A stretch of 64,000 nt of DNA from a virus: IMG/VR virus record IMGVR_UViG_3300048599_000816, positions 32,545 to 96,544 of that record. One strand, given 5' to 3'. The stretch's first letter is position 1, and every line of letters starts with the position of its first letter. A model generated the notes under the pieces. It was not told the DNA's origin, ran no database searches, and saw only the letters and a program-made list of their open reading frames with translations. The position numbers were made by a program, and so were the translations under genes. Positions 72 to 52,254 of the stretch are shown here, one piece after another.

Positions 72-83
72 CTATATCGTGAG
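72..83 (-). promoter_or_regulatory. recurrent upstream motif instance (plus ctatatcgtgag)
   Basis: 25-35 nt upstream of minus-strand ATG at 50. Confidence 0.4.
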
Positions 84-101
84 AATTTCAACTTTTGCCA
101 A

Positions 102-1184
102 TTACCGACCACATATTTTTTTGATTTGTTCTTCAGGAATCCATATCCCTTGATGACATTCAATTTGCCCATTACATTTGAAAAGCATTTCCCCTGAGCC
201 TTTCATTTTTTCAGCACCAGATTCATCAAGAATGATCCTTGAATCTTGTTTGCTCTCTACTCTGAAAGCAACTCTTGCAGGCATATTAGCTTTGATTAGA
301 CCAGTCATGATTTCAACAACCGGTCTCTGTGTTGCCATTATAATATGGATACCAGCAGCTCTTGCTAATTGAGCAAGACGTGTTATTTTATCACTAATTG
401 ATTTGTCACCTGTCATCATCAAATCAGCAAGTTCATCAATCACAAGAACTATATAAGGAAGTTTAATTTTTGCTTGTTTGTTGTAATCAGTAATTGATTT
501 TACATCTGCCTTCTCAAGTTCCAAGTACCGTGTTTCCATTTCGTCAATTAAGCTTGAGAGCAACCCGTCGATTTGCTCTGGCCTTGTAGCAATTGGTGCA
601 TATAAATTAGGAATAGAACGATACAATGCAAATTCAACTCTTTTAGGATCAATTAAAGCAAGTTTGCATTGCTCAGGTCCTAATTTAGAAAGGAGTGAAA
701 GAATAGCTACATTCAAGAAAACAGATTTACCTGAACCAGTAGTTCCTGCAACTAACAGATGTGGCATCTTTGTAAGATCAATAACTTTTGTTGAACTTAT
801 GACAACAGGAAGTTTTTCATCACCAATGTGTTTGAATGCTTCAATGTCAGAAAAATCAAGTGCAATTGACTCGACTTTCTTTGGAAGTTCCTTTTTCTTT
901 ATTGTTGGTGTTGCACGAATTGAATTCAAATATTGACATACTTGAAAGTCAAATTTCCTGATTGTTTCGATTTCTTTTTCAAATCTCGATAACTTGTCAG
1001 CAACTAACATAAAGTCAGTTTTTTTGATTTCTTTGATTGTTTCTTCAACAAAGTTGTATTTCAATTTTCCTTGCATCTCTATAATGGAATCAGAATCAGA
1101 TTGACTCCCTATAAGGCGACGTAACTCACCACAGATAATTTTATCAGTTTTCAACATCGCTTGTATTTGTTTAATTTTATCCAT
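102..1184 (-). CDS. FtsK/SpoIIIE-family DNA translocase ATPase (motor domain only, no N-terminal TM or gamma domain)
   Basis: Walker A LLVAGTTGSGKS, Walker B YIVLVIDELADLMM, ARAAGIHIIMATQRP, closely matching FtsK motor motifs; SD AGGAGG before ATG. Confidence 0.85.
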   Translation of the reverse strand: MDKIKQIQAMLKTDKIICGELRRLIGSQSDSDSIIEMQGKLKYNFVEETIKEIKKTDFMLVADKLSRFEKEIETIRKFDFQVCQYLNSIRATPTIKKKELPKKVESIALDFSDIEAFKHIGDEKLPVVISSTKVIDLTKMPHLLVAGTTGSGKSVFLNVAILSLLSKLGPEQCKLALIDPKRVEFALYRSIPNLYAPIATRPEQIDGLLSSLIDEMETRYLELEKADVKSITDYNKQAKIKLPYIVLVIDELADLMMTGDKSISDKITRLAQLARAAGIHIIMATQRPVVEIMTGLIKANMPARVAFRVESKQDSRIILDESGAEKMKGSGEMLFKCNGQIECHQGIWIPEEQIKKICGR

Positions 1185-1202
1185 ATAATCCTCCTGTAAC
1201 TA

Positions 1203-1215
1203 GCGATATCGTGAG
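1203..1215 (-). promoter_or_regulatory. recurrent upstream motif instance (gcgatatcgtgag)
   Basis: 21 nt upstream of FtsK-like ATG, 5' of SD. Confidence 0.4.
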
Positions 1216-1233
1216 TCTCGACCTGTTTGCCAA

Positions 1234-1362
1234 TTATAGTTTTATTGTATTACCGCTTTTTGTCCAGCTTCTCAATTCCCAGAGTGAACAGTTTTTTAGA
1301 TACTTCCAGCCCATATATCGACCTGTGTCAGTATAAAATCTTACTGTTGCATATTTTGTCAT
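1234..1362 (-). CDS. hypothetical small protein (42 aa; track ORF extends to 1419)
   Basis: Internal ATG at 1360-1362 preceded by perfect SD AAGGAGAAG; promoter-like motif 1389-1400 would lie inside the longer ORF. Confidence 0.4.
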   Translation of the reverse strand: MTKYATVRFYTDTGRYMGWKYLKNCSLWELRSWTKSGNTIKL

Positions 1363-1388
1363 AACTTCTCCTTGTTTTGTTCTACAAA

Positions 1389-1400
1389 CTATATCGCGAG
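1389..1400 (-). promoter_or_regulatory. recurrent upstream motif instance (ctatatcgcgag)
   Basis: 27 nt upstream of ATG 1362 and its SD. Confidence 0.4.
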
Positions 1401-1435
1401 TTTTTCGAGTTTTTGCCATATACTCCTTATTATAG

Positions 1436-1645
1436 CTACTCGAAAAATTTGTTTTTCTTTTGTACTGTTTTATATGAATGATCTGGTTTGATTTTTTCTT
1501 CTTTTTGTATTACAAGTTTTACTTCTTCTTGATCAGGTATTAACGGTTCAATTACAAAAACAGAAGTCTGTATTGATAATAAATATCGGAATCTTTCAAG
1601 ATTAGCTTTTCTCATACCCGTGCCGATTATAGCTATTTTTTTCAT
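1436..1645 (-). CDS. hypothetical protein
   Basis: Non-overlapping minus ORF in co-directional array; ATG start; motif 1703-1715 upstream. Confidence 0.35.
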   Translation of the reverse strand: MKKIAIIGTGMRKANLERFRYLLSIQTSVFVIEPLIPDQEEVKLVIQKEEKIKPDHSYKTVQKKNKFFE

Positions 1646-1702
1646 AGGTTTTCCAAGTTTACTTTTGCAATAAGGTTTTAATAAAATTCAGAGACTTTAA
1701 AG

Positions 1703-1715
1703 CTTATATCACGAG
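1703..1715 (-). promoter_or_regulatory. recurrent upstream motif instance (cttatatcacgag)
   Basis: ~55 nt upstream of ATG 1645. Confidence 0.35.
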
Positions 1716-1880
1716 TTTATGCGCTACCACCACATGAATCACAGAATAAGGCTAGCCAACATGTGTGAATTTATCGAGTGTGCAGAAGTGAATTAATCAA
1801 AAACAGTTGATTTAATCTACTCCCGCCCTGTAAGGCCACTGTTAAGCACCTCGGAACGGAGTCGAACTAAGTTCGGCATC
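1716..1880. other. GC-enriched structured intergenic island
   Basis: GC content stands out from flanks; GGAGTCGAAC T-loop-like sequence; no ORF; no cloverleaf found. Confidence 0.35.
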
Positions 1881-1901
1881 TCAATTAAATCTTTTAAATC
1901 G

Positions 1902-2162
1902 TTATTTTTTCTTTGTTTTTAAGGTATCAATTTTACTTGATTTTACAGTGTCAATCTTGACAACTGCAGTCGTGTCTTTCAAAGAATAAATAAACTTCGT
2001 TGTGTCATGTTTGATAGCAAGAACTGTGTCACAAATTACAACTTTTGTAGTATCAGCTGTGATAACAGTCTTTACTTCGCTTTTTAAAGCTTTTGTCTTT
2101 TGAACTGTTTGTGCAGTAGAAAATAAAGATACACAAATGATTGTTAATAAAACTTTGATCAT
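1902..2162 (-). CDS. secreted repeat protein (signal peptide, DTTK/IDTVK repeats)
   Basis: N-terminal hydrophobic signal MIKVLLTIICVSLFSTAQT; short Thr/Lys repeats. Confidence 0.45.
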   Translation of the reverse strand: MIKVLLTIICVSLFSTAQTVQKTKALKSEVKTVITADTTKVVICDTVLAIKHDTTKFIYSLKDTTAVVKIDTVKSSKIDTLKTKKK

Positions 2163-2243
2163 ATCTCACCTGTTTGTTAGAAAGATCTGACATACTGATA
2201 AAGAAACTGTAACAAGTCTCTTTATCAATTTTTAAAAAAGTTA

Positions 2244-2807
2244 TTATGCGCCGAAGTATTTTGCAATCAGGTCGTTAAGTTCATCCTGAGTTGTGATTTT
2301 TCCGAGCATTCTGGTTTTACCAAGATGATTTTTCTTTGCATCTTCTTCAGTAACAGGCTTGAATGCTTTGAAACCAGTAACTTTATGTGTAAGACCGACA
2401 CTTGATCCCCGCATCCACATACGTTTTTCACCTTGTGTTGCAGTAACAACATACTTCGTTTCTTTTACTTCGACACCCTTAGGTGCTTTAACTTTCAAAG
2501 GAACTTTCTTTTCACGAGACTTTTTTTCAACTTTGGGCTCTGCAGTTTTCTTTGTAGCTTTTTTGACTTCAGCTTTTACTGCAGTTTTAACTTCAGGTTT
2601 TTTTGTTTCAACCTTTTTTGCTTCAGTCTTTTTGACTTCTGGTTTTGCTACAGTTTTTTTCTCTGTTTTTTTGACTTCAGTCTTCTTGACTCCAGACTTT
2701 TTCACTTCAGCCTCTTTGACTTCAGGCTTTACTGCGGCTGTGTTTTTAGCCATTTCATCTGCTCCTTTTTCTGCCTGATCTGGCAGAGAGTTTGTGACTT
2801 CACTCAT
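2244..2807 (-). CDS. lysine-rich tandem-repeat protein (histone H1-like N-terminus plus conserved C-terminal domain)
   Basis: Repeats EVKKxE/TEVKK in protein and ttgacttcag-type repeats in DNA; motif 2854-2867 upstream. Confidence 0.65.
   Translation of the reverse strand: MSEVTNSLPDQAEKGADEMAKNTAAVKPEVKEAEVKKSGVKKTEVKKTEKKTVAKPEVKKTEAKKVETKKPEVKTAVKAEVKKATKKTAEPKVEKKSREKKVPLKVKAPKGVEVKETKYVVTATQGEKRMWMRGSSVGLTHKVTGFKAFKPVTEEDAKKNHLGKTRMLGKITTQDELNDLIAKYFGA
2500..2745. repeat. imperfect tandem repeats encoding the K-rich (P/T)EVKK units
   Basis: Repeated gacttcag(c/t)(c/t)ttt units visible in sequence. Confidence 0.5.
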
Positions 2808-2853
2808 AGTAACTCCTCAAGTAGGTTGTTAAACTAGCATCTACAGAACTAAA

Positions 2854-2867
2854 TTTATATCGCGCAC
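2854..2867 (-). promoter_or_regulatory. recurrent upstream motif instance (tttatatcgcgcac)
   Basis: ~50 nt upstream of ATG 2807. Confidence 0.35.
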
Positions 2868-2881
2868 AGACAAAATGATCA

Positions 2882-3136
2882 TTAAAATGAAGATTTTTTT
2901 GCAGACACTCCACTTGTAAACAAGCGAGCTTTCTCGATTTCTTCACGTGAAATTATTGGAGTATCTTTAGCAGGTACAGATTCTGATTCAACTAAACCAA
3001 GTTTTTCAGCGACTTTCTGTATAAGAAGGAGAGCATTTTCGAAGCGTTCAATAGAAACAAGTGCATCAGCATCGTTTTTATGAGCAAAACGGTTAGCTGT
3101 TACTACAGCACGTAATTTCTCTGTATCGATTAACAT
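2882..3136 (-). CDS. hypothetical protein
   Basis: Non-overlapping minus ORF. Confidence 0.4.
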   Translation of the reverse strand: MLIDTEKLRAVVTANRFAHKNDADALVSIERFENALLLIQKVAEKLGLVESESVPAKDTPIISREEIEKARLFTSGVSAKKSSF

Positions 3137-3137
3137 G

Positions 3138-3338
3138 TTACTTCTTTCTTTCAGGAAGGTTTAAATTTTCGATTTCTTCTAGTGCTTCGTTTGTAAGAGT
3201 TTGTAATGCTTGCCAGTTCTGACGAATTGTTGCTTTATCTTTGCCACCCATTAAAATCATTACTGGATTTCCTGCATCTCTTTCAATAAGGAGATCTACT
3301 CGTGCACCATCACTAGATAGCTGCATTTTTTTTGTCAT
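3138..3338 (-). CDS. hypothetical protein
   Basis: Non-overlapping minus ORF, 1-nt spacing to neighbours. Confidence 0.4.
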   Translation of the reverse strand: MTKKMQLSSDGARVDLLIERDAGNPVMILMGGKDKATIRQNWQALQTLTNEALEEIENLNLPERKK

Positions 3339-3340
3339 GA

Positions 3341-3532
3341 TTATTCTCCCTTAAGATTTTGTTCCTCAGTATCAGTATGTTGATTATTTAAAAGATCCTC
3401 ATTACCTCTATGAGGACAACCTCTGCACTTTTTATCTTGGCATGGTTGTTTGCAGAAAACAACGCGCTCCAAAATATTAGTAGCAAATAAAGCGCAACGA
3501 TATTCTTTTATCCAACGACGTTTCCGTTTCAT
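3341..3532 (-). CDS. Cys-rich zinc-binding mini-protein
   Basis: CKQPCQDKKCRGCPHRG cluster; motif 3537-3550 upstream. Confidence 0.4.
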   Translation of the reverse strand: MKRKRRWIKEYRCALFATNILERVVFCKQPCQDKKCRGCPHRGNEDLLNNQHTDTEEQNLKGE

Positions 3533-3536
3533 ATTA

Positions 3537-3550
3537 GATATATCGTTATG
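3537..3550 (-). promoter_or_regulatory. recurrent upstream motif instance (gatatatcgttatg)
   Basis: Just upstream of ATG 3532. Confidence 0.35.
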
Positions 3551-3571
3551 TTCTGAGCGATTGCCAATTTT

Positions 3572-3898
3572 TCAAACTCTTTTGCATTCCCAAGCTTTGA
3601 AATGCTCAGTCTCAGGATTTTGACCTTTGACAATGAAAGTAGGTTTTGACATGATTTCTTTTAAAGCATCGAGAATGTCATCGTGTTGTTTTCTTCCTCG
3701 TTTTGAAGTGTAAGGTCCATAACCACCACTACCCCATTCAGAAAAAGGAAAAGTCGAAATAGAATTTGTTTGTTCAAGTTCAGTTGCTGCAGCTTCAAGT
3801 TGATAAGCATCAGGCGATGTATATTCTGTAGTTCCAGGTTGCAATCTTGCATACTTTGCAAGAAAGTTTCTGATTTTTAGACTTAATTTATTTGACAT
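3572..3898 (-). CDS. hypothetical protein
   Basis: Minus ORF, ATG start, 11-nt overlap with upstream gene. Confidence 0.4.
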   Translation of the reverse strand: MSNKLSLKIRNFLAKYARLQPGTTEYTSPDAYQLEAAATELEQTNSISTFPFSEWGSGGYGPYTSKRGRKQHDDILDALKEIMSKPTFIVKGQNPETEHFKAWECKRV

Positions 3899-4247
3899 GT
3901 GGAACTCCTAAAGTTTTGCATTGTTTTGGGAAATAAACAGTTAGACCGCAATCAGAACCAAGAAAGAAAACATGTGTTACACAAACTGCACCTTCAGGTA
4001 TTTCTACTATTTCGTTTTCAGGTCTTTTCCAGGGAGCAAAATCAGGGACATTAAGCATATTTCCATTATCAAGACGAACAAATTTATAGTATGTTTTGCT
4101 TCCACCTGACCAGTTTGCATTGTCTCCTGTATCAATTTCAGAAACGTACTGTAATGAAAACTTTCTTCCATTATAGTCAGGATATGCATATTTAGCAATT
4201 TTAACGATTGTCGGATGTGTTTTTGTAGTTATTTTCATAATAAACAC
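3888..4247 (-). CDS. hypothetical protein (likely starts at ATG 4236-4238)
   Basis: Track start is GTG; in-frame ATG 9 nt downstream; motif 4246-4257. Confidence 0.4.
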   Translation of the reverse strand: MFIMKITTKTHPTIVKIAKYAYPDYNGRKFSLQYVSEIDTGDNANWSGGSKTYYKFVRLDNGNMLNVPDFAPWKRPENEIVEIPEGAVCVTHVFFLGSDCGLTVYFPKQCKTLGVPHVK

Positions 4248-4257
4248 ATATCGTTAT
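4246..4257 (-). promoter_or_regulatory. recurrent upstream motif instance (acatatcgttat)
   Basis: Upstream of ATG 4238. Confidence 0.35.
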
Positions 4258-4275
4258 ATTTTTTTTAATTGCCAA

Positions 4276-4611
4276 TTATTTTTCTAAAGAGTCTTTGATC
4301 CAACTAACTTCTTCAGAAGTAAGTTTTTGCAAAAGTTTGTTTGTTAGACGTTTTTTTGTATCGCTTTCAATTGCTTTTTTGAGCTGACTCCAAGCAGCAT
4401 CAATACATTCACGAGCAGTATCTTTTTGCGTTTGAAAAAGAGGTTTGCTCCAGTCAAAAGTACCATATCTGTCTACAACAGCATAAGCAATACAATGAGC
4501 ACCTACCATAAGCATATTTGCATGTATTTGATAGCGTTTACTATCTATCATAATGTCATTAGGAAACAATGACTCTACAGTCTTTTTAAATTCTTGTTCT
4601 CTATCGCTCAT
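4276..4611 (-). CDS. hypothetical protein
   Basis: ATG at 4609-4611 forms ATGA overlap with upstream stop; track TTG start at 4638. Confidence 0.4.
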   Translation of the reverse strand: MSDREQEFKKTVESLFPNDIMIDSKRYQIHANMLMVGAHCIAYAVVDRYGTFDWSKPLFQTQKDTARECIDAAWSQLKKAIESDTKKRLTNKLLQKLTSEEVSWIKDSLEK

Positions 4612-4931
4612 AAAAAAGTCGTTATTGTTAAAATCCAAATAATATGTAATAGATTGTCAGTAAGAATAATTGACCAGGGTGCACAAGGCCCTGTAGCAAA
4701 TTTTTCACTACCCTTTATTTTCATTAACCACAACACAAAGTTTGTTCTATCTTGTATAAAATGTTGAATAGCAATTAAAACAAGTGCAAGCCATGAAAGA
4801 TGACAAAACAAAAAAGGAATCATATAACATAACACATGTACTAAACAAATAAGAGAATTCTTTTTCTTGTTTAATGCCATCCAATCATTTTGCAAAAGAT
4901 AATCGCCAATAAAATGTGATAAAATCAACAT
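4608..4931 (-). CDS. small membrane protein
   Basis: Three hydrophobic segments. Confidence 0.4.
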   Translation of the reverse strand: MLILSHFIGDYLLQNDWMALNKKKNSLICLVHVLCYMIPFLFCHLSWLALVLIAIQHFIQDRTNFVLWLMKIKGSEKFATGPCAPWSIILTDNLLHIIWILTITTFL

Positions 4932-5308
4932 GTCTTATTCTCAATCTTCAAAAACCTGTTTTCTGACTCGGACCAAGCTTCATCAAAGCTTGGATAACGA
5001 TTTTGCTCTTTTTTTGTTTTTTCGACAAGTTCGTCAAGACTTATCGAACTTGCTTCAATTTGATCATGAAAATAAGCAAGCTCTTCATCTTTTCTTGTTA
5101 TTTCATTTTTTAAAACATTGACAGAATTTTTGAGTTTATTAATTTCATCAACATACTCGTCATCAACATTTATGTTATCTTTTTCTTTTAACGCGACTAC
5201 AAAATCAAGAAGATCTTCGACAAAATTGTTTCCGCGCGCAAATTCAAGTAATTTGAAATGTGTTTCTGAGTCAAAACGCTTGCAATGAATAAGTTCACTA
5301 AGCTCCAT
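4925..5308 (-). CDS. coiled-coil hypothetical protein
   Basis: Minus ORF, charged heptad-like segments. Confidence 0.4.
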   Translation of the reverse strand: MELSELIHCKRFDSETHFKLLEFARGNNFVEDLLDFVVALKEKDNINVDDEYVDEINKLKNSVNVLKNEITRKDEELAYFHDQIEASSISLDELVEKTKKEQNRYPSFDEAWSESENRFLKIENKTC

Positions 5309-5392
5309 GATTTCTCTCCTTTATGTGGACATTTTTTAATTAGGAGATTTTATATTATTGAGCTTGAAGTGTGATAAAACTTGTGAATTATT

Positions 5393-6017: not shown

Positions 6018-6119
6018 TTTTTGTTTTACTTTCTTTCATTCAACTATCATATTAGATTTTGATATGAATCAGTCTCGCCTATCTTGTGCAAACTCGTTTA
6101 TTATTCATATAGTTCTATA

Positions 6120-6767: not shown

Positions 6768-6770
6768 AAA

Positions 6771-7340
6771 TTAACGTGAAAGTCTACTTAGAATTATTCC
6801 TGAAAAAATATTTGATAAAGACAATAATAACATATTTGTATGTGTTTTTGTCCATTGACGCTCGATTTTATATTCTGTATTTTTAAGTCTTAACTTCTCA
6901 GTAGAATTTGCATCAATAAATGTAAAAGTAGTTGTGAGACAACCAAACAAAACTTGACTTATACCAATGACTCTATATTTTTCTTTTAATCTTGTTAAAT
7001 ACTTTTCGTCTTCAATAAAACTTGTTGATAAAGGATATTTGTTTTTTAGAATTTTATAACTTTCATAAACTGAGTCTCTTAGAGCAATAACTTTGTTTTT
7101 ATTTTGTTCAACTCTATTCAAAATATTTATTTTTTCTAAAGAATCAGCAGAAGTTATCATTTTTTTTAATGTTTGCAATTCAAACTTCAAAAGTATTTCG
7201 TTATTTACACCATTCATCAGAGAATCTTTAGAGTTACTTTCGTCATAAAGATTTTGAGATTGCAAAGAGATAACAATAGATAATACAATAATTAAAAGTT
7301 TTAAAAACATAAAACGTCTCCTAAAGAAAAAGTTATTCAT
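6771..7340 (-). CDS. secreted/membrane-anchored coiled-coil protein
   Basis: N-terminal TM/signal LKLLIIVLSIVISL, C-terminal hydrophobic tail; motif 7338-7351. Confidence 0.45.
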   Translation of the reverse strand: MNNFFFRRRFMFLKLLIIVLSIVISLQSQNLYDESNSKDSLMNGVNNEILLKFELQTLKKMITSADSLEKINILNRVEQNKNKVIALRDSVYESYKILKNKYPLSTSFIEDEKYLTRLKEKYRVIGISQVLFGCLTTTFTFIDANSTEKLRLKNTEYKIERQWTKTHTNMLLLSLSNIFSGIILSRLSR

Positions 7341-7654
7341 ATATCGTTTTTAAGAATTGTGATTAAATCATCATACATTATCAATGCTGCATCTTGAGGT
7401 GATGCATCTACTAATTTTGACCTATTATCATCAAACCATTGTTGAAATGTAGGCAAGCATGCAATTCTCCCTCGTTTAACGAAACTCATTATTTTTACTG
7501 AATTTCGATTAAGGTTGTACATTGGATCTTCTTCAGGATTACGGCAACCACATTCAGTCTTAATTGCTGTTCCCAAGTAATCTTTGACATCATCATCACA
7601 AGCACCTTCAGGTACTTGAAGTTCGACAGCATAAATTTTTTTATTGTTTTTCAT
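7337..7654 (-). CDS. hypothetical protein
   Basis: ATGA overlap with downstream gene. Confidence 0.4.
   Translation of the reverse strand: MKNNKKIYAVELQVPEGACDDDVKDYLGTAIKTECGCRNPEEDPMYNLNRNSVKIMSFVKRGRIACLPTFQQWFDDNRSKLVDASPQDAALIMYDDLITILKNDI
7338..7351 (-). promoter_or_regulatory. recurrent upstream motif instance (catatatcgttttt)
   Basis: Abuts ATG 7340. Confidence 0.3.
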
Positions 7655-7899: not shown

Positions 7900-8201
7900 G
7901 CATCATCAAAATTTACACGTAAATGATAGCCCATCTCTGCAGCTAGATCGTCAGTTAATCCACAATCCCCAAAACGAGAAACCATGACAATTTTCAAAGT
8001 CGTACCTACAGGAATTTTTTTCACAATATGATTACTTTCATAAGGATGTTTCCCGTTCCAGCACTTTAACTCAACTTGTTTAACTGTAGTCACATATGCA
8101 TGAGTAAGTTGATGATTGACTTTGCTTTTATATAATTCATCAATTATTATTCTCTCGTCATCAGTAAGCTGTCGGACATCAGCTTGATTTTGAATATTCA
8201 T
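7869..8201 (-). CDS. hypothetical protein
   Basis: ATG 8199-8201 in ATGA overlap with upstream stop. Confidence 0.4.
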   Translation of the reverse strand: MNIQNQADVRQLTDDERIIIDELYKSKVNHQLTHAYVTTVKQVELKCWNGKHPYESNHIVKKIPVGTTLKIVMVSRFGDCGLTDDLAAEMGYHLRVNFDDACITNIRRIP

Positions 8202-11037: not shown

Positions 11038-11056
11038 GTGTGCTCTCCAATACTTA

Positions 11057-11071
11057 TTTTATATCATATTG
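11057..11071 (-). promoter_or_regulatory. recurrent upstream motif instance (ttttatatcatattg)
   Basis: Coding-strand TGATATAAAA then SD before ATG 11037; in 45-bp divergent region. Confidence 0.35.
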
Positions 11072-11082
11072 AAAGGAAAAAA

Positions 11083-11634
11083 ATGATTAAAAAAATAATG
11101 ACAAAACAAAGAAGAGAAGTTGAATACATAATAGATAATTCAATGACATTTTCAAAATCTCCATGGGCTTTAATTTCTATTTGGAGTTCCCAAGAATTAA
11201 TTACGCCTTTTAATAGAGAAATATTGTCAAAAGCTGGATGTAGTGAAATTTTAAGTGTAAAATTCAGTGATTTGACTTTAGACGAATATAATAAACTTAG
11301 TTTTCAAAAAAAATCTATATCATTTTTGTTTAAAGAAGAACAAGCAAAATCTATAATTAATTTTATTAATAAAGTAAATGCTATGGAAATACCAGAACTC
11401 TTTATACATTGTGCTGCAGGAATTTCAAGGAGTGGAGCTGTTGGAGTTTGGACTTGTCGTTATCTAAACTTAGATGAAAATGAATTTTTAGAAAACAATA
11501 AACACATCTTACCTAATACTTATATTCTTAATGTTTTGAATTCTGCAAGTGGTATTAACGACCAATACATGAAATTCTGGGAAACTGAATTGAATAAAGA
11601 AAAACGCGAAAATATGATGTTTAATATATTTTAA
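11083..11634 (+). CDS. dual-specificity/protein-tyrosine phosphatase
   Basis: Active-site HCAAGISRSG (CX5R); SD AAAGGAA before ATG 11083 (track GTG 11038). Confidence 0.75.
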   Translation: MIKKIMTKQRREVEYIIDNSMTFSKSPWALISIWSSQELITPFNREILSKAGCSEILSVKFSDLTLDEYNKLSFQKKSISFLFKEEQAKSIINFINKVNAMEIPELFIHCAAGISRSGAVGVWTCRYLNLDENEFLENNKHILPNTYILNVLNSASGINDQYMKFWETELNKEKRENMMFNIF

Positions 11635-12719: not shown

Positions 12720-13014
12720 GGTTCTTCATAATATCTGCGGTCTGTGCTTCAATCCGACATAATGGTGAAGCACGATACGTTGGCAATCGTGTAGTATATC
12801 TACTTTTCAAGGTTAGTCTAGCTGTAGATCTTCCCTTGACATGCTCTTGAAATTTCTTAAACATAGATTCACTGCAACTAAAAACAGATTTTGCTTCTTT
12901 TACAGCTTCACCAAAACATAATACTAATTCATTGTCATCATTAGTATAGCAAGGCACTTGATATCTTATAGAAGGACGACTGTTTTGGCAACAGGGACTC
13001 ATATCTGTACTCAT
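12652..13014 (-). CDS. hypothetical protein
   Basis: Minus ORF. Confidence 0.4.
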   Translation of the reverse strand: MSTDMSPCCQNSRPSIRYQVPCYTNDDNELVLCFGEAVKEAKSVFSCSESMFKKFQEHVKGRSTARLTLKSRYTTRLPTYRASPLCRIEAQTADIMKNLEPVQEKNKKFSFIFKTEESFE

Positions 13015-13077: not shown

Positions 13078-13821
13078 ATGAACGTTATTGTCGACATGTG
13101 GCGTTATGCAGAGTCAAGTAATCATGCAAAAGAATTTGAAAGTTATGACTTTCTTAAAGACAAAAAAATCACAAAATGCATTCACGAAGAATGTTTTTCT
13201 TTTGTTAGTGAAGAAGAAAACAGAATCGTCTTTGTTTTTGCTGGCACACAAGGTAATTTAAAATCTTGGTTATTAGATTTTCTCGCATTACCAATTTCTG
13301 ACGAAACTACAAAACACACAAAAACAAAAGAACTCGGTACAATACATTCTGGTTTTTACAGCATTTGGGAAAAGTCAAAAGCAATGGTTGATGAAATAAT
13401 TTCTAGAGCTGGTACAAAACAGATTTTTGTGACAGGTATGAGCCAAGGTGGTGCTGTAGCAACTTTATGCGCTCGTCATCTTGTAAAAAACAGAAATGTT
13501 AGTAAAACAAATCTTACTCTAGTTTCTTTTGGTGCACCTGCACAAGGTTTGAAAGAATATGCAAGTCAAATAAACGAATTAATAAGTACACATTTTAGAG
13601 TAGTAGATGGTTATGACATTGTCCCGACAATGCCACCTGTAAAACTTGGATTTGTGCATGGAGGAAGTTTTATCTGGTTGAGTGCACCTTGGTGGCATAA
13701 ATTCATTTATAAAGTCAAAGCACATTTCTATTCATCATATACAAAGGGTCTAATGAAAAAATTTACAAAACCTGATGAATTAGCTGAACTAAAAATCGTG
13801 TTAGATAGGGTCAATATTTAA
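13078..13821 (+). CDS. class-3 (fungal-type) lipase / alpha-beta hydrolase
   Basis: FVFAGTQGNLKSW and nucleophile elbow GMSQGGAVA; SD AAGGAG before ATG. Confidence 0.7.
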   Translation: MNVIVDMWRYAESSNHAKEFESYDFLKDKKITKCIHEECFSFVSEEENRIVFVFAGTQGNLKSWLLDFLALPISDETTKHTKTKELGTIHSGFYSIWEKSKAMVDEIISRAGTKQIFVTGMSQGGAVATLCARHLVKNRNVSKTNLTLVSFGAPAQGLKEYASQINELISTHFRVVDGYDIVPTMPPVKLGFVHGGSFIWLSAPWWHKFIYKVKAHFYSSYTKGLMKKFTKPDELAELKIVLDRVNI

Positions 13822-17357: not shown

Positions 17358-17654
17358 ATGATTAATTATAAAGAAACAACTGAAGTTAAAGAAGCATTTG
17401 AGAAGTACAATGCATTCCCTGAAAATGACGAGAGAAGAATTCATTTTTTGTTTGCTGAAGGAAAAGAAGTTGTATTAGAAGTCAAAGTCACAGACTCTCA
17501 ACTTTTTCGTTTAACTTGTCTTTCTATGTTCACTAGTAATTCTCCTCTTTCTGTTCCTGGGGCAGAAATAACTTCTATAAGTCTAGATACAAATGGTAAA
17601 GATAAAGTCATAAAGTTTTTAGAAGAACAACTTCATAATTTAAAGAAACTATAA
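17358..17654 (+). CDS. hypothetical protein
   Basis: Plus ORF with SD AAAGGGAAAA, in divergent intergenic region. Confidence 0.4.
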   Translation: MINYKETTEVKEAFEKYNAFPENDERRIHFLFAEGKEVVLEVKVTDSQLFRLTCLSMFTSNSPLSVPGAEITSISLDTNGKDKVIKFLEEQLHNLKKL

Positions 17655-41068: not shown

Positions 41069-41266
41069 ATGATTGCTTTTAAAGAAGATGTTACAGAAAG
41101 ACTTAGGACAATGGCATATTTGCTTGATTGTATCTCGTCTTTATATAATGCAGGTATTATATCTGATGAAAGAGCTTTAGAAAAATCTAATTGCTTTCTT
41201 AACCATATTGACGATGTAATGAAAATAGCTGAAAGTGAATTTAACGAGCTTGGAGAAACAGAATGA
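41069..41266 (+). CDS. hypothetical protein
   Basis: Plus ORF with SD AGAGGAG; first of three ATGA-coupled plus ORFs. Confidence 0.5.
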   Translation: MIAFKEDVTERLRTMAYLLDCISSLYNAGIISDERALEKSNCFLNHIDDVMKIAESEFNELGETE

Positions 41267-41568
41267 AACGAGCAGCTGATCACGACAAATATCTTGGTAT
41301 TATCCATAGTATTGCACAAGCAGAAGAACTTCAAGAAAAAGACAAACGAAAAGAAGAACATAAGCCTGAAGTTAAACAAACATGTTTTAATTGTGGGATG
41401 AAAAAATCTTGCAAAAAATTCTCTGGAAAACTTACATATGATGGTTCTTATTCTGTTGGTGGTGACACGCATACTGGAACTTGCGACAAATGGTGCCCCG
41501 TAAAAAACCAACCAAACGATCCTAAAAAAGTGAAATCACTTTTAAAACAATTTTCAAGATTAAAATGA
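41263..41568 (+). CDS. Cys-containing hypothetical protein
   Basis: ATGA overlap; CFNCGMKKSCKK...C. Confidence 0.5.
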   Translation: MKRAADHDKYLGIIHSIAQAEELQEKDKRKEEHKPEVKQTCFNCGMKKSCKKFSGKLTYDGSYSVGGDTHTGTCDKWCPVKNQPNDPKKVKSLLKQFSRLK

Positions 41569-41813
41569 AAAAAGAACAGTGGGAAAAGTTAGAGCAAGGA
41601 ATGTTTGTTTTTTCCAAATCAGGAACAAAACGTGAAATCTTGAAAGTTTCAAAGATCAATGGGAAAACTAAATGTATTACTTTAAAAGCTGTAAGAAAAA
41701 CTACTTATGGTGAACCAAACACAGTTCTTTGTCAAAACGATTGTCATGCTTATTTTTTGGAAGATAGATCAAAAGAATGGAAAGAACTAAACAAAAAACT
41801 TCAAAATCTTTAA
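41565..41813 (+). CDS. hypothetical protein
   Basis: ATGA overlap; followed by terminator hairpin. Confidence 0.5.
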   Translation: MKKEQWEKLEQGMFVFSKSGTKREILKVSKINGKTKCITLKAVRKTTYGEPNTVLCQNDCHAYFLEDRSKEWKELNKKLQNL

Positions 41814-44158: not shown

Positions 44159-44860
44159 TCATTGAAATTTCCCTGCGATTAATTTGTATCCTGTTTCAGG
44201 TCCACTATATTTAAAACCCATACAAGCATTACATCTATATGGATTATTTGTTGTTCCCATTTTTTTCCAAACTGTTCCTGTACCTGAGCAAAAAACACAT
44301 GGCATAAAAATTCTAGCAACTTGGTTTTGTTTAGATTTTTCAAAATCAAGATGTGTTATATTTGTATGAAATACGTCAAGCTCTTTAACGCTTACTGCTT
44401 TTGAAGCAGGTGTTTTTTCAAGTTTTAAAAGTCTTGATAAACATGTCTTTGGAGCAGAAAGAACGAAGTTTTTAAACGAAGACTCTATCGTAAAATAATT
44501 CGTTGCAATTTCCGCAGTCTCAACATTAATCAATTTCAAAGAGAAAAAATATGATGTTTCATCTAGCTTCCCAAATGAACCTGTTAAAACATACTTAATA
44601 TCGAGAATTTTTCCGATTTCTACCATAGAATTAGTTGCACCTGACAATTGCAAACTTTGTTCTTTAAAAATTTGTTCAATGTTTTGTCTTTCAACTAAAG
44701 TAAACATACCTAATTGTTGAATTTCAAAACTTAATTTGTCAGTAACAATTGAAACTAATTGCGATTCAAAATCGATAGGTTTTAGATTGATGACAGCTAT
44801 ATTGTCTTTTGCAACAGTAATAGAACAAAGCAAAGATAAAGTAATAAGTATGTTCTTCAT
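44159..44860 (-). CDS. secreted protein with C-terminal Cys-rich region
   Basis: Signal peptide; perfect SD AAGGAGG; motif 44877-44889. Confidence 0.45.
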   Translation of the reverse strand: MKNILITLSLLCSITVAKDNIAVINLKPIDFESQLVSIVTDKLSFEIQQLGMFTLVERQNIEQIFKEQSLQLSGATNSMVEIGKILDIKYVLTGSFGKLDETSYFFSLKLINVETAEIATNYFTIESSFKNFVLSAPKTCLSRLLKLEKTPASKAVSVKELDVFHTNITHLDFEKSKQNQVARIFMPCVFCSGTGTVWKKMGTTNNPYRCNACMGFKYSGPETGYKLIAGKFQ

Positions 44861-45762: not shown

Positions 45763-45776
45763 AAAAAACCTTTCTG

Positions 45777-47496: not shown

Positions 47497-47986
47497 CGTC
47501 TTCTTCTGGTCCTTGATTCAATTCATAAATTGCTTGACTAAGTTGTTGATTTACAGTTCTTACATACTCTTCTGATGAATTCTCGTCGAGTAAATCTGAT
47601 AAAAGTTTTACCTCGTTAAATTTATCAAGCTTTCCTTTCAAAAAAGCTTTTTCATCAGGATTTTCGCAAGTAGATATTTTTTCTATCATTGTTTTTAATA
47701 CTTTTTCATAACTTTTATTTGATTGTTGCTTTAAAAAAGTAGACAATTCTTTGGGAGTTTTAGGGAAGTCATCAATTTGCAATTCGTTCAAAGCATAAAA
47801 AACTCTTTGTGTCATTGTGTTACATAAACCAGAATTCAAAACATCTAAAAGAACAAAAAGCTTATGTATTCGTTTTTCTGCATCAAGATTGTACATATAC
47901 AGCTTTGAAATATGATTCATTTGTCTTAAATGAAGAAGACCACTTAACATTGAAATAAAACATAACAAGATCACTAAAAAAGCCAT
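47486..47986 (-). CDS. hypothetical protein with N-terminal TM
   Basis: Minus ORF. Confidence 0.4.
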   Translation of the reverse strand: MAFLVILLCFISMLSGLLHLRQMNHISKLYMYNLDAEKRIHKLFVLLDVLNSGLCNTMTQRVFYALNELQIDDFPKTPKELSTFLKQQSNKSYEKVLKTMIEKISTCENPDEKAFLKGKLDKFNEVKLLSDLLDENSSEEYVRTVNQQLSQAIYELNQGPEEDDGN

Positions 47987-47998
47987 TATTATTTCTTT

Positions 47999-49987
47999 CT
48001 ACTTTAATAAATTAAAAAATTCAAGTTCACTTAAAACGGGAATATTAAGTTGTTTAGCTCTATCAAGTTTTGAACCAGCATCTTCACCTACAACAAGATA
48101 AGTAAGACCCTTTTTAACTGCCTTCTCTATTTGACCACCATTCTTTATTACAATAGCATGCATATCTTCTCTTGTAAGACGTTCTCCATTTTTGTCTGTT
48201 GATTGAATTGTTCCTGTAAAACAAAATATTTTACCTTTTAAAGCTTCAGAATCAATCTTTACTTTATCAGGTTCTTTGATTGTTATTCCAACGTCAAAAA
48301 GATTTTTTATCACAATTGCTTTCTCTTGTAATCCTTTTTTAATTTGAGATGCAGTTTTTTCACCAATTCCATTAACTGCAACCAACTGCTCTTCTGTTGC
48401 ATTGTAAATTTTCAAAATATCATTGTAACCAGCTTTTATTAAAGCTTGAGCAGTTTCAGTAGAGAAATTAGGCATATTGAGACCTGCAATAAATTCAGGA
48501 AGTGTGATACACATTTTTGCTTTCAAGTTTTCAACAACTTTTGTTGCTGAACGTTCGCCCATGCGTTCAAGTTCTGAAACCTGACTAACTGTAAGTCTAT
48601 AAAAATCTGCAGGTTCTCTTACAAGATGCTTATCATAAAGCATTTGAATAATTTTTGGACCCACACTATCAATATTCAAAACATTTATCCAACGTTCAAG
48701 ATTCCCTGTGCCAAGACCTGAACATGCATCATTAGTACAAGATAAAAATTTACTTGCTGTTAATTGTCCCTTCACAAGAGAAATTTGAATTTCAGCTTTC
48801 CCCCCGCATTCAGGACAAGTAGATGGAACTTCAAAGTTTTCAGTACCACCACCAATATTTTTAACCATATAAGGAATAACATCATTTGCACGTTCAATAA
48901 GAACAGAGCAACCTTTTTTGAGTTTGAACGATTTAAAGATATCAACATTATGAAGACTGCATCGACGAACAGTAACACCACCCATAGATACTGGTTGTAA
49001 TATTGCAATTGGTGTTATTCTTCGACTATTTCCTATATGCCATATAACATCAAGAAGTATTGTTTCTTTTTGCATTGGTTTAAACTTCCAAGCAATTTGA
49101 GCTTTTGGATTTCCACCTAACATTCCATGTTGTTCTTGAAGAGCAAGAGAATTTGCACGTATTACAAGACCATCAATGTCATAAGGCAATGTTGCTCTTA
49201 TCGTTGATTCATATTCATCAAAGATTTGAATTGCTTCTGTTTTTGAAACTTTTTTCCAAAAACAAGTTTTAAGGCCGAAGCTCTCGATCATTAGAAGTTT
49301 TTCTTCTTCAGTAGTACAATTTACACCTTTGATGTTATAAAAATAGATTGACAAAAATTCGACATTTTCACCGTCAAGAGTTTTCTGAAGACCTACTGCA
49401 GTATTTCGAGGATTTTTATAGTCGCGACCACTCTTAACAATGAGAGCTTCAAAATCTTCTCTCAAGATAAAAACTTCACCATAGAGATTACCAGTAAAAC
49501 CTGGAATGAATGATTTAACATTTTTCATCTTTAAAACGTTTTGAAGCACATCTTCGCCTTCATTACCATCACCACGTGAAATTGCTTGTATGAGATTCCC
49601 ATTCGAATAAACAAGATCAATAGAACCACCATCCATTTTGTCGAAAACAACGTATGAAGTATCGCCAATTTCTTCACACCATTTTTCAAACTCACTACGA
49701 AAATTGACTTTGTTTAAAGATGTCATGATAATTCGATGAGCAGCTTTTTTCCATTCAGAAGCAACAACAGGTGCACCAACTTGGTTAAGAAATTCTTCAA
49801 CTTCTTTCACAAGTTTTGGGTCAATAGATTTTTTAGGAAGAAGAACTCTATTATAAAGAGTTATAAGGCGATCTTTTTTTGTATCATACTCAGCATCAGG
49901 AATAATGGATTCACTATCGTTGTAATAAGCATTAGAAGCTTTCACTAATACTTCAAGGATTTCCCTTGCTTCATCAAATAATCTCAT
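47999..49987 (-). CDS. ligA: NAD-dependent DNA ligase
   Basis: Adenylation motif KMDGG, OB motif GGVTVRRCSLHN, Cys4 zinc finger, HhH, C-terminal BRCT; SD AAGGAG. Confidence 0.85.
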   Translation of the reverse strand: MRLFDEAREILEVLVKASNAYYNDSESIIPDAEYDTKKDRLITLYNRVLLPKKSIDPKLVKEVEEFLNQVGAPVVASEWKKAAHRIIMTSLNKVNFRSEFEKWCEEIGDTSYVVFDKMDGGSIDLVYSNGNLIQAISRGDGNEGEDVLQNVLKMKNVKSFIPGFTGNLYGEVFILREDFEALIVKSGRDYKNPRNTAVGLQKTLDGENVEFLSIYFYNIKGVNCTTEEEKLLMIESFGLKTCFWKKVSKTEAIQIFDEYESTIRATLPYDIDGLVIRANSLALQEQHGMLGGNPKAQIAWKFKPMQKETILLDVIWHIGNSRRITPIAILQPVSMGGVTVRRCSLHNVDIFKSFKLKKGCSVLIERANDVIPYMVKNIGGGTENFEVPSTCPECGGKAEIQISLVKGQLTASKFLSCTNDACSGLGTGNLERWINVLNIDSVGPKIIQMLYDKHLVREPADFYRLTVSQVSELERMGERSATKVVENLKAKMCITLPEFIAGLNMPNFSTETAQALIKAGYNDILKIYNATEEQLVAVNGIGEKTASQIKKGLQEKAIVIKNLFDVGITIKEPDKVKIDSEALKGKIFCFTGTIQSTDKNGERLTREDMHAIVIKNGGQIEKAVKKGLTYLVVGEDAGSKLDRAKQLNIPVLSELEFFNLLK

Positions 49988-50000
49988 AAATAACTCCTTT

Positions 50001-50025
50001 GTATCGTATCTATTATATCACATGC
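50001..50025 (-). promoter_or_regulatory. recurrent upstream motif, two overlapping copies (gtatcgtatc / ttatatcacatg)
   Basis: Upstream of ligA SD and ATG 49987. Confidence 0.4.
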
Positions 50026-50106
50026 TTTCACATAAACAACCAAATAAATAAAACGTGCCCAAGCAAAAACGCTTAAGCACATTTCAAAAAAAGGGGGGTA
50101 TTTTAA

Positions 50107-50382
50107 TTATTCAAAAAAAGAACATGTATCTTTGAGGCAATCATAACAAGAATGGATTTTTTTGCAGTCTTTACAAACAGAATTATTCCAAGCTTTTTTA
50201 AAAGATTCAGCATGTGTTTCTACCCATTGGATAAAAAACTGTTCTGAAGGTTGACCATTTTGATCAAAACGAAGATTTTTTCGAGCTTTTTCGCTTTCTA
50301 TATAGACTGATTTATCAATTGCATGCATTTGTGCAATAAGAAATTTAGCAAATTCAAGTTCATGAATACAAGCCATAAACAC
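50107..50382 (-). CDS. Cys-rich hypothetical protein
   Basis: Minus ORF. Confidence 0.4.
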   Translation of the reverse strand: MFMACIHELEFAKFLIAQMHAIDKSVYIESEKARKNLRFDQNGQPSEQFFIQWVETHAESFKKAWNNSVCKDCKKIHSCYDCLKDTCSFFE

Positions 50383-50478
50383 TCACTTGTTATCTTATAA
50401 AGACTCCTTACTGTTTAATCTATATTATTTTAATTTTCCCTTAAAGTAAAATTAATAAACACTTTGCAAAAAATAGTC

Positions 50479-51354
50479 TTAAATTTCAATAAAAGTTGAT
50501 GAAACAACATATTGATTTATCTCAAACAAAACAAAATTTGTTTTTGGAACTGGCATATAGATATTAGGATATATTTGCCCGGGTTGCACAACTAAAGTCT
50601 TACCTAAATATTTTTTCCAAACACCAGTAATAGAATATGATTCATGAATATGACCATGCAAAGTAAGTAATGGTTGTTCTTTTTCAATCCAATTATAAAT
50701 TGATTTTGACCCTACAGGATTTAAACAATCATATGTTCCATTTTGTAAAAGTCTACCACAAACATCAAGTTCAAGATTTGCTGGTGGCATGTGTATTGCA
50801 TATACTGTGCAAGGATGTGTAACAATTTCTTTTTGCAAATCTTCTTCTATTGTAGTTTTTTCGCTAAAATAAAGATCTAAATCGTTAATATCAACAAAAC
50901 CCTTTTCAGACACGTCAACACCTTTTTTGCAAAAAGGTCGATTCCAACCTCTATAGTCAAGTTTACATGCAGATTTTAATCCAAAGGGATAATCACAAAC
51001 ATAAGGATATGCTTTGAACAAAATACCTTCGATTTCTACAGGATTCTCATTAAGTAGATTCCCAAATTTTCTAAAGTATTTCTTTCTAGAATAAATATCA
51101 TCATTCCCAAAGAAGACTAAAATCTTTATTCCATTTTGGGAGGCTTTTTCAAAGTAATTTTTGAGAAACTTATTTATGAATTTTTTTTGTATTTCAGTAA
51201 TATTGTAGCCTTTAGGTAAAAAATCTGAACCTAAATGAATAAGTTTTATCTTGTTGTCAAGAGCATAATTTAAAATATCATTATATTTTTTTTCAATACC
51301 ATGAAGATCAGTAGCATAAATAAATAACATCACAACTCCGAGGTTTTTATGCAA
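50479..51354 (-). CDS. calcineurin-like metallophosphoesterase
   Basis: DLHG, GNDD, GHIHE motifs. Confidence 0.65.
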   Translation of the reverse strand: MHKNLGVVMLFIYATDLHGIEKKYNDILNYALDNKIKLIHLGSDFLPKGYNITEIQKKFINKFLKNYFEKASQNGIKILVFFGNDDIYSRKKYFRKFGNLLNENPVEIEGILFKAYPYVCDYPFGLKSACKLDYRGWNRPFCKKGVDVSEKGFVDINDLDLYFSEKTTIEEDLQKEIVTHPCTVYAIHMPPANLELDVCGRLLQNGTYDCLNPVGSKSIYNWIEKEQPLLTLHGHIHESYSITGVWKKYLGKTLVVQPGQIYPNIYMPVPKTNFVLFEINQYVVSSTFIEI

Positions 51355-51515
51355 GAGAAAAAAGAAAAAACAAGAATCGAGATCCTTGTCGAAAATGGTT
51401 ACAAACGGTTAGATAATTATTATAAAATGAAGATTAAAAAGTCTAAATATAGTAGAGAATCTGAGTACCAAAATGTGTGTATTATTAGTAAGAATTTTAA
51501 AAATTAACTGTATAA

Positions 51516-51595
51516 TGGAGCTGGGAGTAGGGGTTTCACCTACAAGGTTGATTATGCTGAATCAACAGCACCTTACCTTTGACGGGGTCCCCAGC
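51516..51595 (-). ncRNA. tRNA-like element with genomically encoded NCCA 3' end
   Basis: Minus strand: 7-bp acceptor helix GCUGGGG/UCCCAGC, T-arm GUAGG-UGAAACC-CCUAC, discriminator U + CCA, 7-bp anticodon-like stem (6-nt loop), weak D-arm; 80 nt. Confidence 0.35.
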
Positions 51596-51602
51596 ATAAA
51601 TT

Positions 51603-52214
51603 TTAAAACTTATAACTTCCTGAGGGCTTTCTTACTTTAAGTTGCCACCATACTTCAGGACAATCTTTTAGATTCCACTGAATTTTTCCTTTCTTTGACT
51701 TTACTACAAGTCCTTCATTTTCGGGTTCTTTAATTACCTCGTCATAAAGTCCTTTAAAATTACCAGGGAAAGTATCAGCAAGTTTAAAATGTTTATTTTT
51801 TCTGTTTTCACCAAAGATATCTTCAATCATACGGCGACGAACTTCTAAAGTCTCAAAAACTTGTTCACCTTTATACCAATAAATATCATAGACGTAAACT
51901 TGATGTTTAATGTGTTTTGTCTTTTGATGCAAAAGTTCAGCATCAATATGAGTACCATGAGGAATTTTGAAAGAATCTAATTCATCTAAAAGACTTGGTG
52001 AAGGTTCATATGACAAAACATCTTTATGTCTATTCCAAAAAACAAATCCGTTGAAACTTTTCATTTGAGAAGATTCTACAGGATCATTCCTCAATGCAAG
52101 ACGAGAACCATTTTTCTTTATTTCTGCCCACCAATCAGGATCTTCTGATTTCTCAGCAAAAGTCTGACTTTCAATAGTAATAAGAATAGGTTTATTAGGG
52201 TAAAAATAAATCAT
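51603..52214 (-). CDS. ligase/capping-family nucleotidyltransferase (small DNA/RNA-ligase-like)
   Basis: Motif I AEIKKNGSR (KxNG variant as in RNA ligases), III DAEL, IV EGLVVK; motif 52242-52254 and SD AAGGAG. Confidence 0.5.
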   Translation of the reverse strand: MIYFYPNKPILITIESQTFAEKSEDPDWWAEIKKNGSRLALRNDPVESSQMKSFNGFVFWNRHKDVLSYEPSPSLLDELDSFKIPHGTHIDAELLHQKTKHIKHQVYVYDIYWYKGEQVFETLEVRRRMIEDIFGENRKNKHFKLADTFPGNFKGLYDEVIKEPENEGLVVKSKKGKIQWNLKDCPEVWWQLKVRKPSGSYKF

Positions 52215-52241
52215 AAGTAGAATCTCCTTTTGAAACTCTAC

Positions 52242-52254
52242 TTATATCGTGAGT
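52242..52254 (-). promoter_or_regulatory. recurrent upstream motif instance (cttatatcgtgag)
   Basis: 28 nt upstream of ATG 52214, 5' of SD AAGGAG. Confidence 0.45.

Follow-up and report, generated by a model that had tools for sequence, protein, structure and literature searches.

A two-box candidate promoter of sigma70-family type upstream of replication and small genes in an uncultured huge phage

We describe a repetitive sequence motif in a stretch of 64,000 nucleotides of viral DNA (positions 32,545 to 96,544 of the IMG/VR record IMGVR_UViG_3300048599_000816; this whole stretch is referred to below as the window), which recurs upstream of gene starts and which we interpret as one half of a candidate promoter consisting of two conserved boxes. 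The window has a G+C content of about 32%, its minus strand holds nearly all of its genes, and strong AAGGAG Shine-Dalgarno (SD) sites are found on these genes. The encoded proteins identified with Pfam include a DnaE-type polymerase III alpha, topoisomerase IA (TopA), NAD-dependent ligase, CCA-adding enzyme, NAPRTase and an FtsK/HerA-like ATPase; further window proteins are dCMP deaminase, an RNase T-like exonuclease, HPr, ribosomal protein S21 and numerous small proteins of no assigned function. The Pfam searches covered all open reading frames (ORFs) of the window with at least 60 amino acids, partly as concatenated polyproteins, and 45 ORFs of relatives without a homologue in the window; the PHROGs searches covered positions 63986-9717.

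The S21 protein of the window is recorded on a contig of 426,911 bp, and the window is therefore a stretch of an uncultured phage of about 427 kb. A megablast search of the window against GenBank phages gave zero matches, and a protein search with DnaE among GenBank phages found only distant matches, the top one at 33% identity. Relatives of the window phage were found in metagenomes only. A relative of 424,144 bp in IMG/VR (IMGVR_UViG_3300029288_006769, contig Ga0265297_10000052), sampled here as loci L006, L010, L089 and L091, has amino-acid identities to the window of 76% for DnaE, 80% for TopA, 79% for the CCA enzyme and 60% for NAPRTase. The TopA proteins of loci L008, L009, L025 and L012 are 98%, 81%, 71% and 70% identical to that of the window, respectively, and that of the more distant relative L015 is 54% identical. 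No relative of the FtsK-like protein was found in IMG/VR.

The motif had previously been described from the plus strand as at least 16 near-identical copies of TATATCG(T/C)GAG, always in the same orientation upstream of minus-strand start codons. The exact sequence TATATCGYGAG is present in the window in 3 copies (at 73, 1390 and 52243; 0.02 expected) and, when one mismatch is allowed, in 7 copies, all on the plus strand (0.75 expected); with up to two mismatches the count rises to 27 (15.6 expected), of which 19 have the orientation of the motif. The number 16 is thus overstated for this 11- or 12-mer, but it is about right when a second box is included in the pattern (20 sites, see below). 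The conserved core, as seen in the sequence logo, is shorter than the 11-mer: read along the minus (coding) strand it is CGATAT(A), next to a CTCA that is only weakly conserved. The second box, (T/A)TGGCA, lies 17–18 nt upstream of this core and becomes visible when all coding-strand occurrences of GATATA are listed, with TGGCA about 23 nt upstream.

Starting from 11 seeds, a two-block position weight matrix (PWM) converged on 21 sites. With scores of at least 20 bits, the trained PWM detects 14 gene-strand sites and no site on the opposite strand; dinucleotide shuffles yield 0.01 on average. Because the PWM was trained on the same data, the test was repeated with the plain, untrained regular expression TGGY-N18/19-GATAT, which occurs in the window 20 times on the minus strand and once on the plus strand, compared to a mean of 1.55 in shuffled sequences. 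Eleven of the 20 sites end 2–75 nt before a called start (2.7 expected, p=1.6e-5), and of three others, one lies before an alternative start (1362), one before a gene that runs off the low end of the window and has no called start, and one before a structured RNA. There are 15 well-placed sites, in which GATAT is located 7–60 nt upstream of a start codon or of the conserved structured RNA. In an unbiased k-mer enrichment test on the 43 genes with an upstream gap of at least 30 nt, the words GATATA, CGATAT, CGATATA and TGGCAA rank right below the Shine-Dalgarno words. Enrichment upstream of starts, which had been proposed as a check on the motif, is borne out within the window, and the motif is always co-oriented with the genes, as originally claimed.

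The logo of the 15 well-placed sites shows an upstream box (T/A)TGGCA with an invariant G-G, followed by a spacer with information content near zero, which measures 17 nt at 10 sites and 18 nt at 5. The downstream box starts with C at 13 of the 15 sites (T at 2), continues with G, A, T, A and T at all 15, and ends with A at 11; there is a weak C-T at -17/-16, and conservation ends after -7. Positions are given in the numbering of the sigma28 open complex, (-15)GCCGATAA(-8) (PMC12784957), which assigns CGATAT to -13 through -8 (C-13, G-12, A-11, T-10, A-9, T-8) and TTGGCA to exactly -35 through -30. Position -12 is occupied by G at all 15 sites and position -7 by A at 11 and by T at 1, and the TAnnnT pattern of housekeeping promoters is consequently absent. 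Two boxes with a variable, unconserved 17/18-nt spacer are the signature of a sigma70-family holoenzyme, and the sites further agree with this promoter family in their spacing (17 ± 1), in their location upstream of and co-oriented with genes, and in their enrichment over chance.

The preliminary description had likened the core to an extended -10 element and had overlooked the -35 box; this comparison did not hold up. An extended -10 reading (cGaTATAnn) was ruled out because it requires a spacer of 19–20 nt, leaves both the invariant A after G and the variable last positions unexplained, and would place +1 inside the leaderless ATG described below. Reading TGGCA as a sigma54 element was ruled out by inspection of the logo, which has no conserved GC 11 nt downstream.

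All predicted promoters lie on the minus strand. At the low end of the window, P78 (73..101) consists of the -35 box TTGGCA (96-101), N17 and the -10 box C+GATATA (73-78), and it precedes a gene that starts near 44 and runs off the window. P1210 (1205..1233, TTGGCA-N17-cGATATC) is located 21 nt before ATG 1184 of the FtsK/HerA-like ATPase, and P1710 (1705..1733, GTGGTG-N17-tGATATA) 60 nt before ATG 1645. Between them, P1395 (1390..1419, ATGGCA-N18-cGATATA) is followed by an SD and ATG at 1362. The motif copy at 1390-1400 lies inside ORF 1234-1419, the start codon of which, ATG 1419, is contained in the -35 box and has a less favourably spaced SD (AGGAG-N3-ATG) than ATG 1362 (AAGGAG-N5-ATG); a gene start at 1362 instead of 1419, as suggested earlier, is plausible but unproven. 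The P1395 spacer contains a perfect tandem repeat, AAAAACTCG twice (1396-1413). The sequence ACTC(A/G)C recurs right upstream of GATATA at P78, P1210, P1710 and P52248, where it may mark a stronger sub-class of sites or an extra contact at -18..-14.

Three sites would give rise to mRNAs with little or no leader. At P3544 (3539..3567, TTGGCA-N17-cGATATA) ATG 3532 coincides exactly with the predicted +1, which implies a leaderless mRNA; at P4252 (4247..4275, TTGGCA-N17-cGATATG) ATG 4238 lies 9 nt past GATAT, 2 nt after the predicted +1, for a near-leaderless mRNA; and at P9512 (9507..9535, ATGGTA-N17-cGATATA) ATG 9496 lies 11 nt past GATAT and 4 nt after +1. The next sites are P15762 (15757..15785, TTGGCT-N17-cGATATA; start 15728, 29 nt on), P20366 (20361..20390, TTGGCA-N18-cGATATA; ATG 20330, 31 nt on, in an operon with the NAPRTase gene), P24416 (24411..24439, ATGGCA-N17-cGATATT; ATG 24389, 22 nt on) and P29863 (29858..29886, ATGGTA-N17-cGATATA; ATG 29815, 43 nt on). 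The CsgG-like gene (ATG 44860) and the CCA-adding enzyme follow P44884 (44879..44908, TAGGCA-N18-cGATATA), the NAD-dependent DNA ligase follows P50019 (50014..50043, TTGGTT-N18-tGATATAAT), which comes right after a terminator hairpin at 50049-50086, and the 'MIYFYP' gene, of 203 amino acids, follows P52248 (52243..52271, ATGGCA-N17-cGATATA). P54964 (54959..54988, TTGGCA-N18-cGATATG) has a structured RNA and topA downstream. The two examples singled out in the preliminary description, at the genes starting at 44860 and 52214, are both correct, except that the gap to the SD at 44860 is 5 nt and not 7.

Several weaker candidates are found on the same strand. A possible internal promoter at 7944..7972 (TTGGGG-N17-cGATCTA) lies about 70 nt before ATG 7872, and another possible promoter at 28521..28550 (TTGGTA-N18-cGATTTT) about 50 nt before ATG 28471. 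A further possible internal promoter at 57591..57620 (GTGGCT-N18-cGAAATA) is situated inside the 3' end of dnaE, with the dCMP deaminase start (57540) 56 nt on and a counterpart at L006:13406. Candidates with a -10 box only are CGATATA at 2856..2862, which has a poor -35 box and lies upstream of gene 2753/2807, and the similar CGATATA at 7340-7346 before ATG 7310 and TGATATA at 11060-11066 before ATG 11037.

The predicted promoters head most operons of the replication, nucleotide-metabolism and small-gene region, and the stretch at 1-5 kb is rich in them. It had been noted that the motif precedes only a subset of genes; not every gene has it indeed, but this is largely a consequence of operon structure, with about 15–18 promoters at operon heads for about 120 genes. 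The mostly minus-strand genome also contains small islands of plus-strand genes (11038-11634, 13078-13821, 17358-17654 and 41263-41813), among whose products are a dual-specificity-phosphatase-like protein and a class 3 lipase. The motif was found before none of the plus-strand genes of the window. The phage must accordingly use one or more further promoter types, from which the plus-strand genes are probably expressed.

We scanned 80 TopA-centred metagenome loci with the PWM. Matches occur only in close relatives (TopA identity of at least 70%) and only on the gene strand, and the approximately 70 unrelated TopA loci, including ten with less than 30% G+C, have essentially none. Neither the motif nor an alternative motif was found in the more distant relatives L015, L090, L092, L011 and L013. 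Four promoters of the window have counterparts at orthologous positions, in 2–6 genomes: P52248 in L008, L010/L006 and L012; P54964, upstream of topA, in L008, L009, L010, L012 and L025; P50019, at the ligase gene, in L008 and L010; and P44884 in L091 (L091:9267). In orthologous pairs the boxes are 93% identical and the spacers 47%, a contrast exaggerated by the use of this very PWM to find the orthologues; the agreement in position is independent of the PWM. The 424-kb relative has more sites of the same form elsewhere.

P54964 is directly followed by a structured RNA with a long hairpin (54868..54958, minus strand) upstream of topA. The hairpin is conserved in the window, L009, L010 and L012, with double compensatory changes in 9 of its 24 pairs, and in each of these four genomes its 5' base falls at +1 to +4 of the predicted P54964 start. 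A true start site would be expected to give a transcript that opens with a conserved stem at the predicted +1, and this supports the inferred start of transcription. On the 3' side of the hairpin there are a T-rich block and a conserved intrinsic terminator (GAGATAG..CTATCTC-TTTTTGCATTTT, about 54785-54818, minus strand), and the 184-nt unit after P54964 folds with z=-3.1. Rfam has no family for the RNAs found in the window; the one that precedes topA may act as a regulatory leader or be a small RNA of the phage. A conserved box TTGCAT/TTGTAT-N18/19-TATAAT/TATAAA is present between this terminator and the SD of topA (54740-54790, minus strand, with equivalents in L009 and L025). This box resembles the TTGCAT..TATnTT promoters before rpsU of Fibrobacterota and may be a host-type promoter for topA.

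A second secondary structure is found at P52248, where a hairpin with a U-run (52212-52246, minus strand; -16.2 kcal/mol, z=-4.7) overlaps both the promoter and the start of the next gene. L010 retains this hairpin at 12932-12965 with three compensatory pairs (-18.6 kcal/mol, z=-4.2). The 5' arm of the hairpin is located upstream of the predicted +1; a terminator-like hairpin that masks the SD would thus form in read-through transcripts, and a much weaker one in transcripts initiated at P52248 itself.

The closest cellular homologues of the phage S21 (17000-17212, minus strand) are from Fibrobacterota (Fibrobacteraceae and Chitinispirillia; 60–69% identity), followed by other phyla of the Fibrobacterota-Chlorobiota-Bacteroidota (FCB) group, and the named matches for S21 and NAPRTase likewise belong to the FCB group. 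S21 is thus a hint to the host, weakly assigned here to Fibrobacterota, and possibly serves in a takeover of translation. Canonical TTGnnn-N16-18-TAnnnT promoters, mostly TTGCAT or TTGACA followed by TAT(A/T)TT, are found 72–120 nt upstream of rpsU in 15 of 15 Fibrobacterota rpsU loci, and none of these 15 loci contains the phage motif. In 135 kb of Fibrobacterota DNA (both strands) the phage regular expression occurs 7 times, which corresponds to background. The -10 box of the phage, compared with a host-type consensus as had been recommended, looks unlike the canonical promoters of the likely host phylum. Within the window, three counts of canonical sigma70-type sites gave 99, 82 and 71 versus 85.7, 81.0 and 90.1 in shuffles, that is, no enrichment. 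Upstream of window genes there is likewise no enrichment of TATAAT, of TTGACA, of the Fibrobacterota-type promoter pattern or of the Bacteroidetes element TAnnTTTG (7 versus 8.6 expected), and the combined TTTG...TAnnTTTG pattern is absent.

We consider it reasonably probable that the motif forms the -10 part of a two-box promoter of sigma70-family type that is read with a non-housekeeping sigma factor. The original proposal of a candidate promoter is supported by the strand and position bias, the two boxes with their 17/18-nt spacer, the orthologous sites and the features at the predicted +1. The accompanying idea of a phage-specific sigma factor gains support from a -10 box that departs from TATAAT at -12 and -7, which are the most diagnostic positions, from the lack of enrichment of host-type sites and from the canonical form of the Fibrobacterota rpsU promoters. 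In the mechanism that we propose, the promoter would be read by a multisubunit RNA polymerase of bacterial type whose sigma factor is not the housekeeping one of the host; sigma region 4 would bind the -35 box (T/A)TGGCA, and sigma region 2 would bind and melt the CGATAT box with A-11 flipped out. Transcription would begin about 7 nt past CGATAT, the -10 specificity would be of the sigma28/SigD or the SPO1 gp34 type, and the sigma factor would most likely be phage-encoded or phage-re-specified.

A number of points weigh against this reading, and several of them can also be read as favouring recognition by the host's own housekeeping sigma, the consensus then reflecting the preference of an uncultured host lineage. 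TTGGCA equals TTGACA at five of six positions and stands at the canonical place (-35 to -30), the spacer is 17–18 nt, and A-11, T-10 and A-9 match TATAAT, so that a housekeeping sigma with relaxed requirements at -12 and -7 is possible. No gene for a sigma factor, an anti-sigma factor or an RNA polymerase was found in about 110 kb (the 64-kb window and about 50 kb of relatives), which is about a quarter of the genome, and other promoter types are unenriched in the 64 kb. Moreover, the group of six sites at 78-4275, each in front of small genes, has the look of a classical early region, and early regions in other phages use the host sigma. The conservation of the boxes is partly by construction, the same PWM having located the sites in relatives, and each step that leads from the motif to initiation, to the position of +1 and to the nature of the sigma factor is one that we infer from sequence. 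The host assignment is weak as well, resting on the similarity of S21 and a few named FCB matches; if it is wrong, the contrast with host promoters fails. Recognition by the housekeeping sigma nevertheless appears unlikely to us, considering the invariant G at -12, the C at -13 (13 of 15) and a -7 position that is not T, as well as the canonical promoters at all 15 rpsU loci of Fibrobacterota, the background density of the phage motif in their DNA and its absence from the phage's distant relatives L015, L090 and L092.

The remaining explanations are less probable still. The well-placed CGATATA sites with a poor upstream box (at 2861, 7345 and 11065) suggest that the two boxes may be read separately, as in sigma appropriation at T4 middle promoters, where the host sigma would act on the -10 box and a phage activator bound to TGGCA would replace region 4; AsiA-like proteins have been reported in huge phages (PMC7162821). 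We nonetheless regard appropriation as improbable, since such promoters retain TAnnnT in the -10 box, the upstream box is here at the canonical -35 and not at -30, and no MotA- or AsiA-like protein was detected in the window by Pfam or PHROGs. A signal other than a promoter, either an operator for a DNA-binding regulator or a processing or translation signal acting at the RNA level on longer transcripts, is very improbable: operators are also expected upstream of genes, and the hairpin overlapping P52248 indicates that other signals share the same space, yet the motif is neither palindromic nor repeated, its distance to the start codon ranges from 7 to 222 nt and is unfit for a translation signal, one site precedes a non-coding structured RNA, and the bipartite 17/18 spacing is the geometry of sigma. 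Least probable, and in fact highly doubtful, is a promoter of a phage RNA polymerase that uses no sigma, whether single-subunit and T7-like or multisubunit and phiKZ/AR9-like, a possibility raised in the preliminary description. Jumbo phages can encode their own polymerases (PMC7598289). Promoters of this kind are, however, single contiguous blocks near +1, in contrast to the two blocks and variable unconserved spacer found here, and the 110 kb searched contain no polymerase gene.

If the preferred reading, a promoter served by a non-housekeeping sigma factor, is extended to the whole system, we would tentatively propose the following. A sigma factor or sigma-remodelling system, encoded by a clade of phages of about 425 kb that probably infect Fibrobacterota, may combine a preference for a sigma70-like -35 box (TTGGCA) with one for a sigma28/gp34-like -10 box (CGATAT). 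Practically all of the replication and small-gene region may be under its control, with leaderless mRNAs, a conserved small RNA and a promoter whose position within a terminator hairpin would let the transcripts it initiates avoid termination. In this joint form the proposal is an uncertain one that we hold with less than even confidence.

Some features of the window and its relatives lie outside the subject of promoters. Unusual cargo genes on the minus strand encode an 876-amino-acid protein with a major-vault-protein shoulder and repeat domains (30666-33296), a PTS HPr homologue (30397-30666) and the CsgG-like lipoprotein (44159-44860). Locus L089 of the 424-kb relative (contig positions 56586-77788) encodes a GH5 cellulase, a response-regulator receiver domain, a PEP-CTERM protein and a heptosyltransferase as well as GIY-YIG/NUMOD3 homing-endonuclease-like ORFs, and gene orientation there is mixed. 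In a tRNA-like element of about 80 nt (51515-51596, minus strand), T-CCA comes after an acceptor stem of 7 bp; there are also a 5-bp stem whose 7-nt loop reads TTGATTC (anticodon GAT), a stem resembling a T-arm, and a variable region that is long. The element is called by neither ARAGORN nor Rfam and is present in a single copy in the DNA compared; its absence from the otherwise near-identical L008 points to an insertion or deletion.

Very little is known about the regulatory signals of uncultured huge phages, and the present motif provides a well-defined and clade-specific consensus with a clear prediction of +1. It can be used to delimit operons, to correct gene starts (1362 in place of 1419, and those of leaderless genes), to locate non-coding RNAs, the structured RNA ahead of topA being an example, to sort genes into expression classes by a scan of the full genome, and to direct the search for the cognate sigma factor. 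If that sigma factor is phage-encoded, the promoter/sigma pair would be a candidate orthogonal part, and it would constitute evidence that megaphages of FCB-group hosts perform their own promoter recognition.

Phage-clade-specific promoters of sigma type are well known as a kind, and the consensus itself had no match in our literature searches; the phage G paper contains generic PhagePromoter predictions only. Among promoters of phages, the late promoters of SPO1, CGTTAGA-N17-19-GATATT, are read with gp34 and gp33 (PMC3601020). They are likewise phage-specific and bipartite, with the same range of spacers and a -10 box that agrees at five of six positions (GATATT versus GATATA, and one of our sites has GATATT). 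On the other hand, their -35 box is unrelated, they serve late (structural) genes as opposed to replication and small genes, neither Pfam nor PHROGs revealed a homologue of gp34 or gp33 in the window, nor did Pfam in about 50 kb of relatives, and SPO1 is unrelated to the window phage (best GenBank DnaE match 33%). The T4 middle promoters, composed of a MotA box and a sigma70 -10 box, are similar in that a phage-specific upstream box replaces the host -35 box before replication genes, and they differ in that their upstream box is centred at -30 while ours occupies -35 to -30 and in that our -10 box is not TAnnnT. A T7-like single-subunit promoter is one contiguous block of about 20 bp spanning -17 to +6, unlike the bipartite motif described here with its variable spacer and its lack of conservation after -7. 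The canonical sigma70/SigA promoter, TTGACA-N17-TATAAT, shares the location and five of six bases of the -35 box, the spacer length and A-11, T-10 and A-9; the window sites have G in place of T at -12, C-13, T-8 and an unconserved -7. Promoters of sigma28/FliA/SigD, a group 3 sigma, have the form TAAA-N15-GCCGATAA, or GCCGATAT in B. subtilis. They differ from ours in the -35 box, which is TCTAAAG/TAAA(G) and not (T/A)TGGCA, and in the GC at -15/-14, in place of which our sites have the weak C-T at -17/-16; the genes driven here are also phage replication genes and not flagellar genes, and no FliA-like gene was found in the DNA scanned. The -10 box, GCCGATAA/T for sigma28 and CGATAT (13 of 15 sites) or TGATAT (2 of 15) here, agrees in part, with the CGATA(A/T) core in the same register and with C-13, G-12 and the A-11 that is flipped out; both the -35/-10 geometry and the implied +1 are the same.

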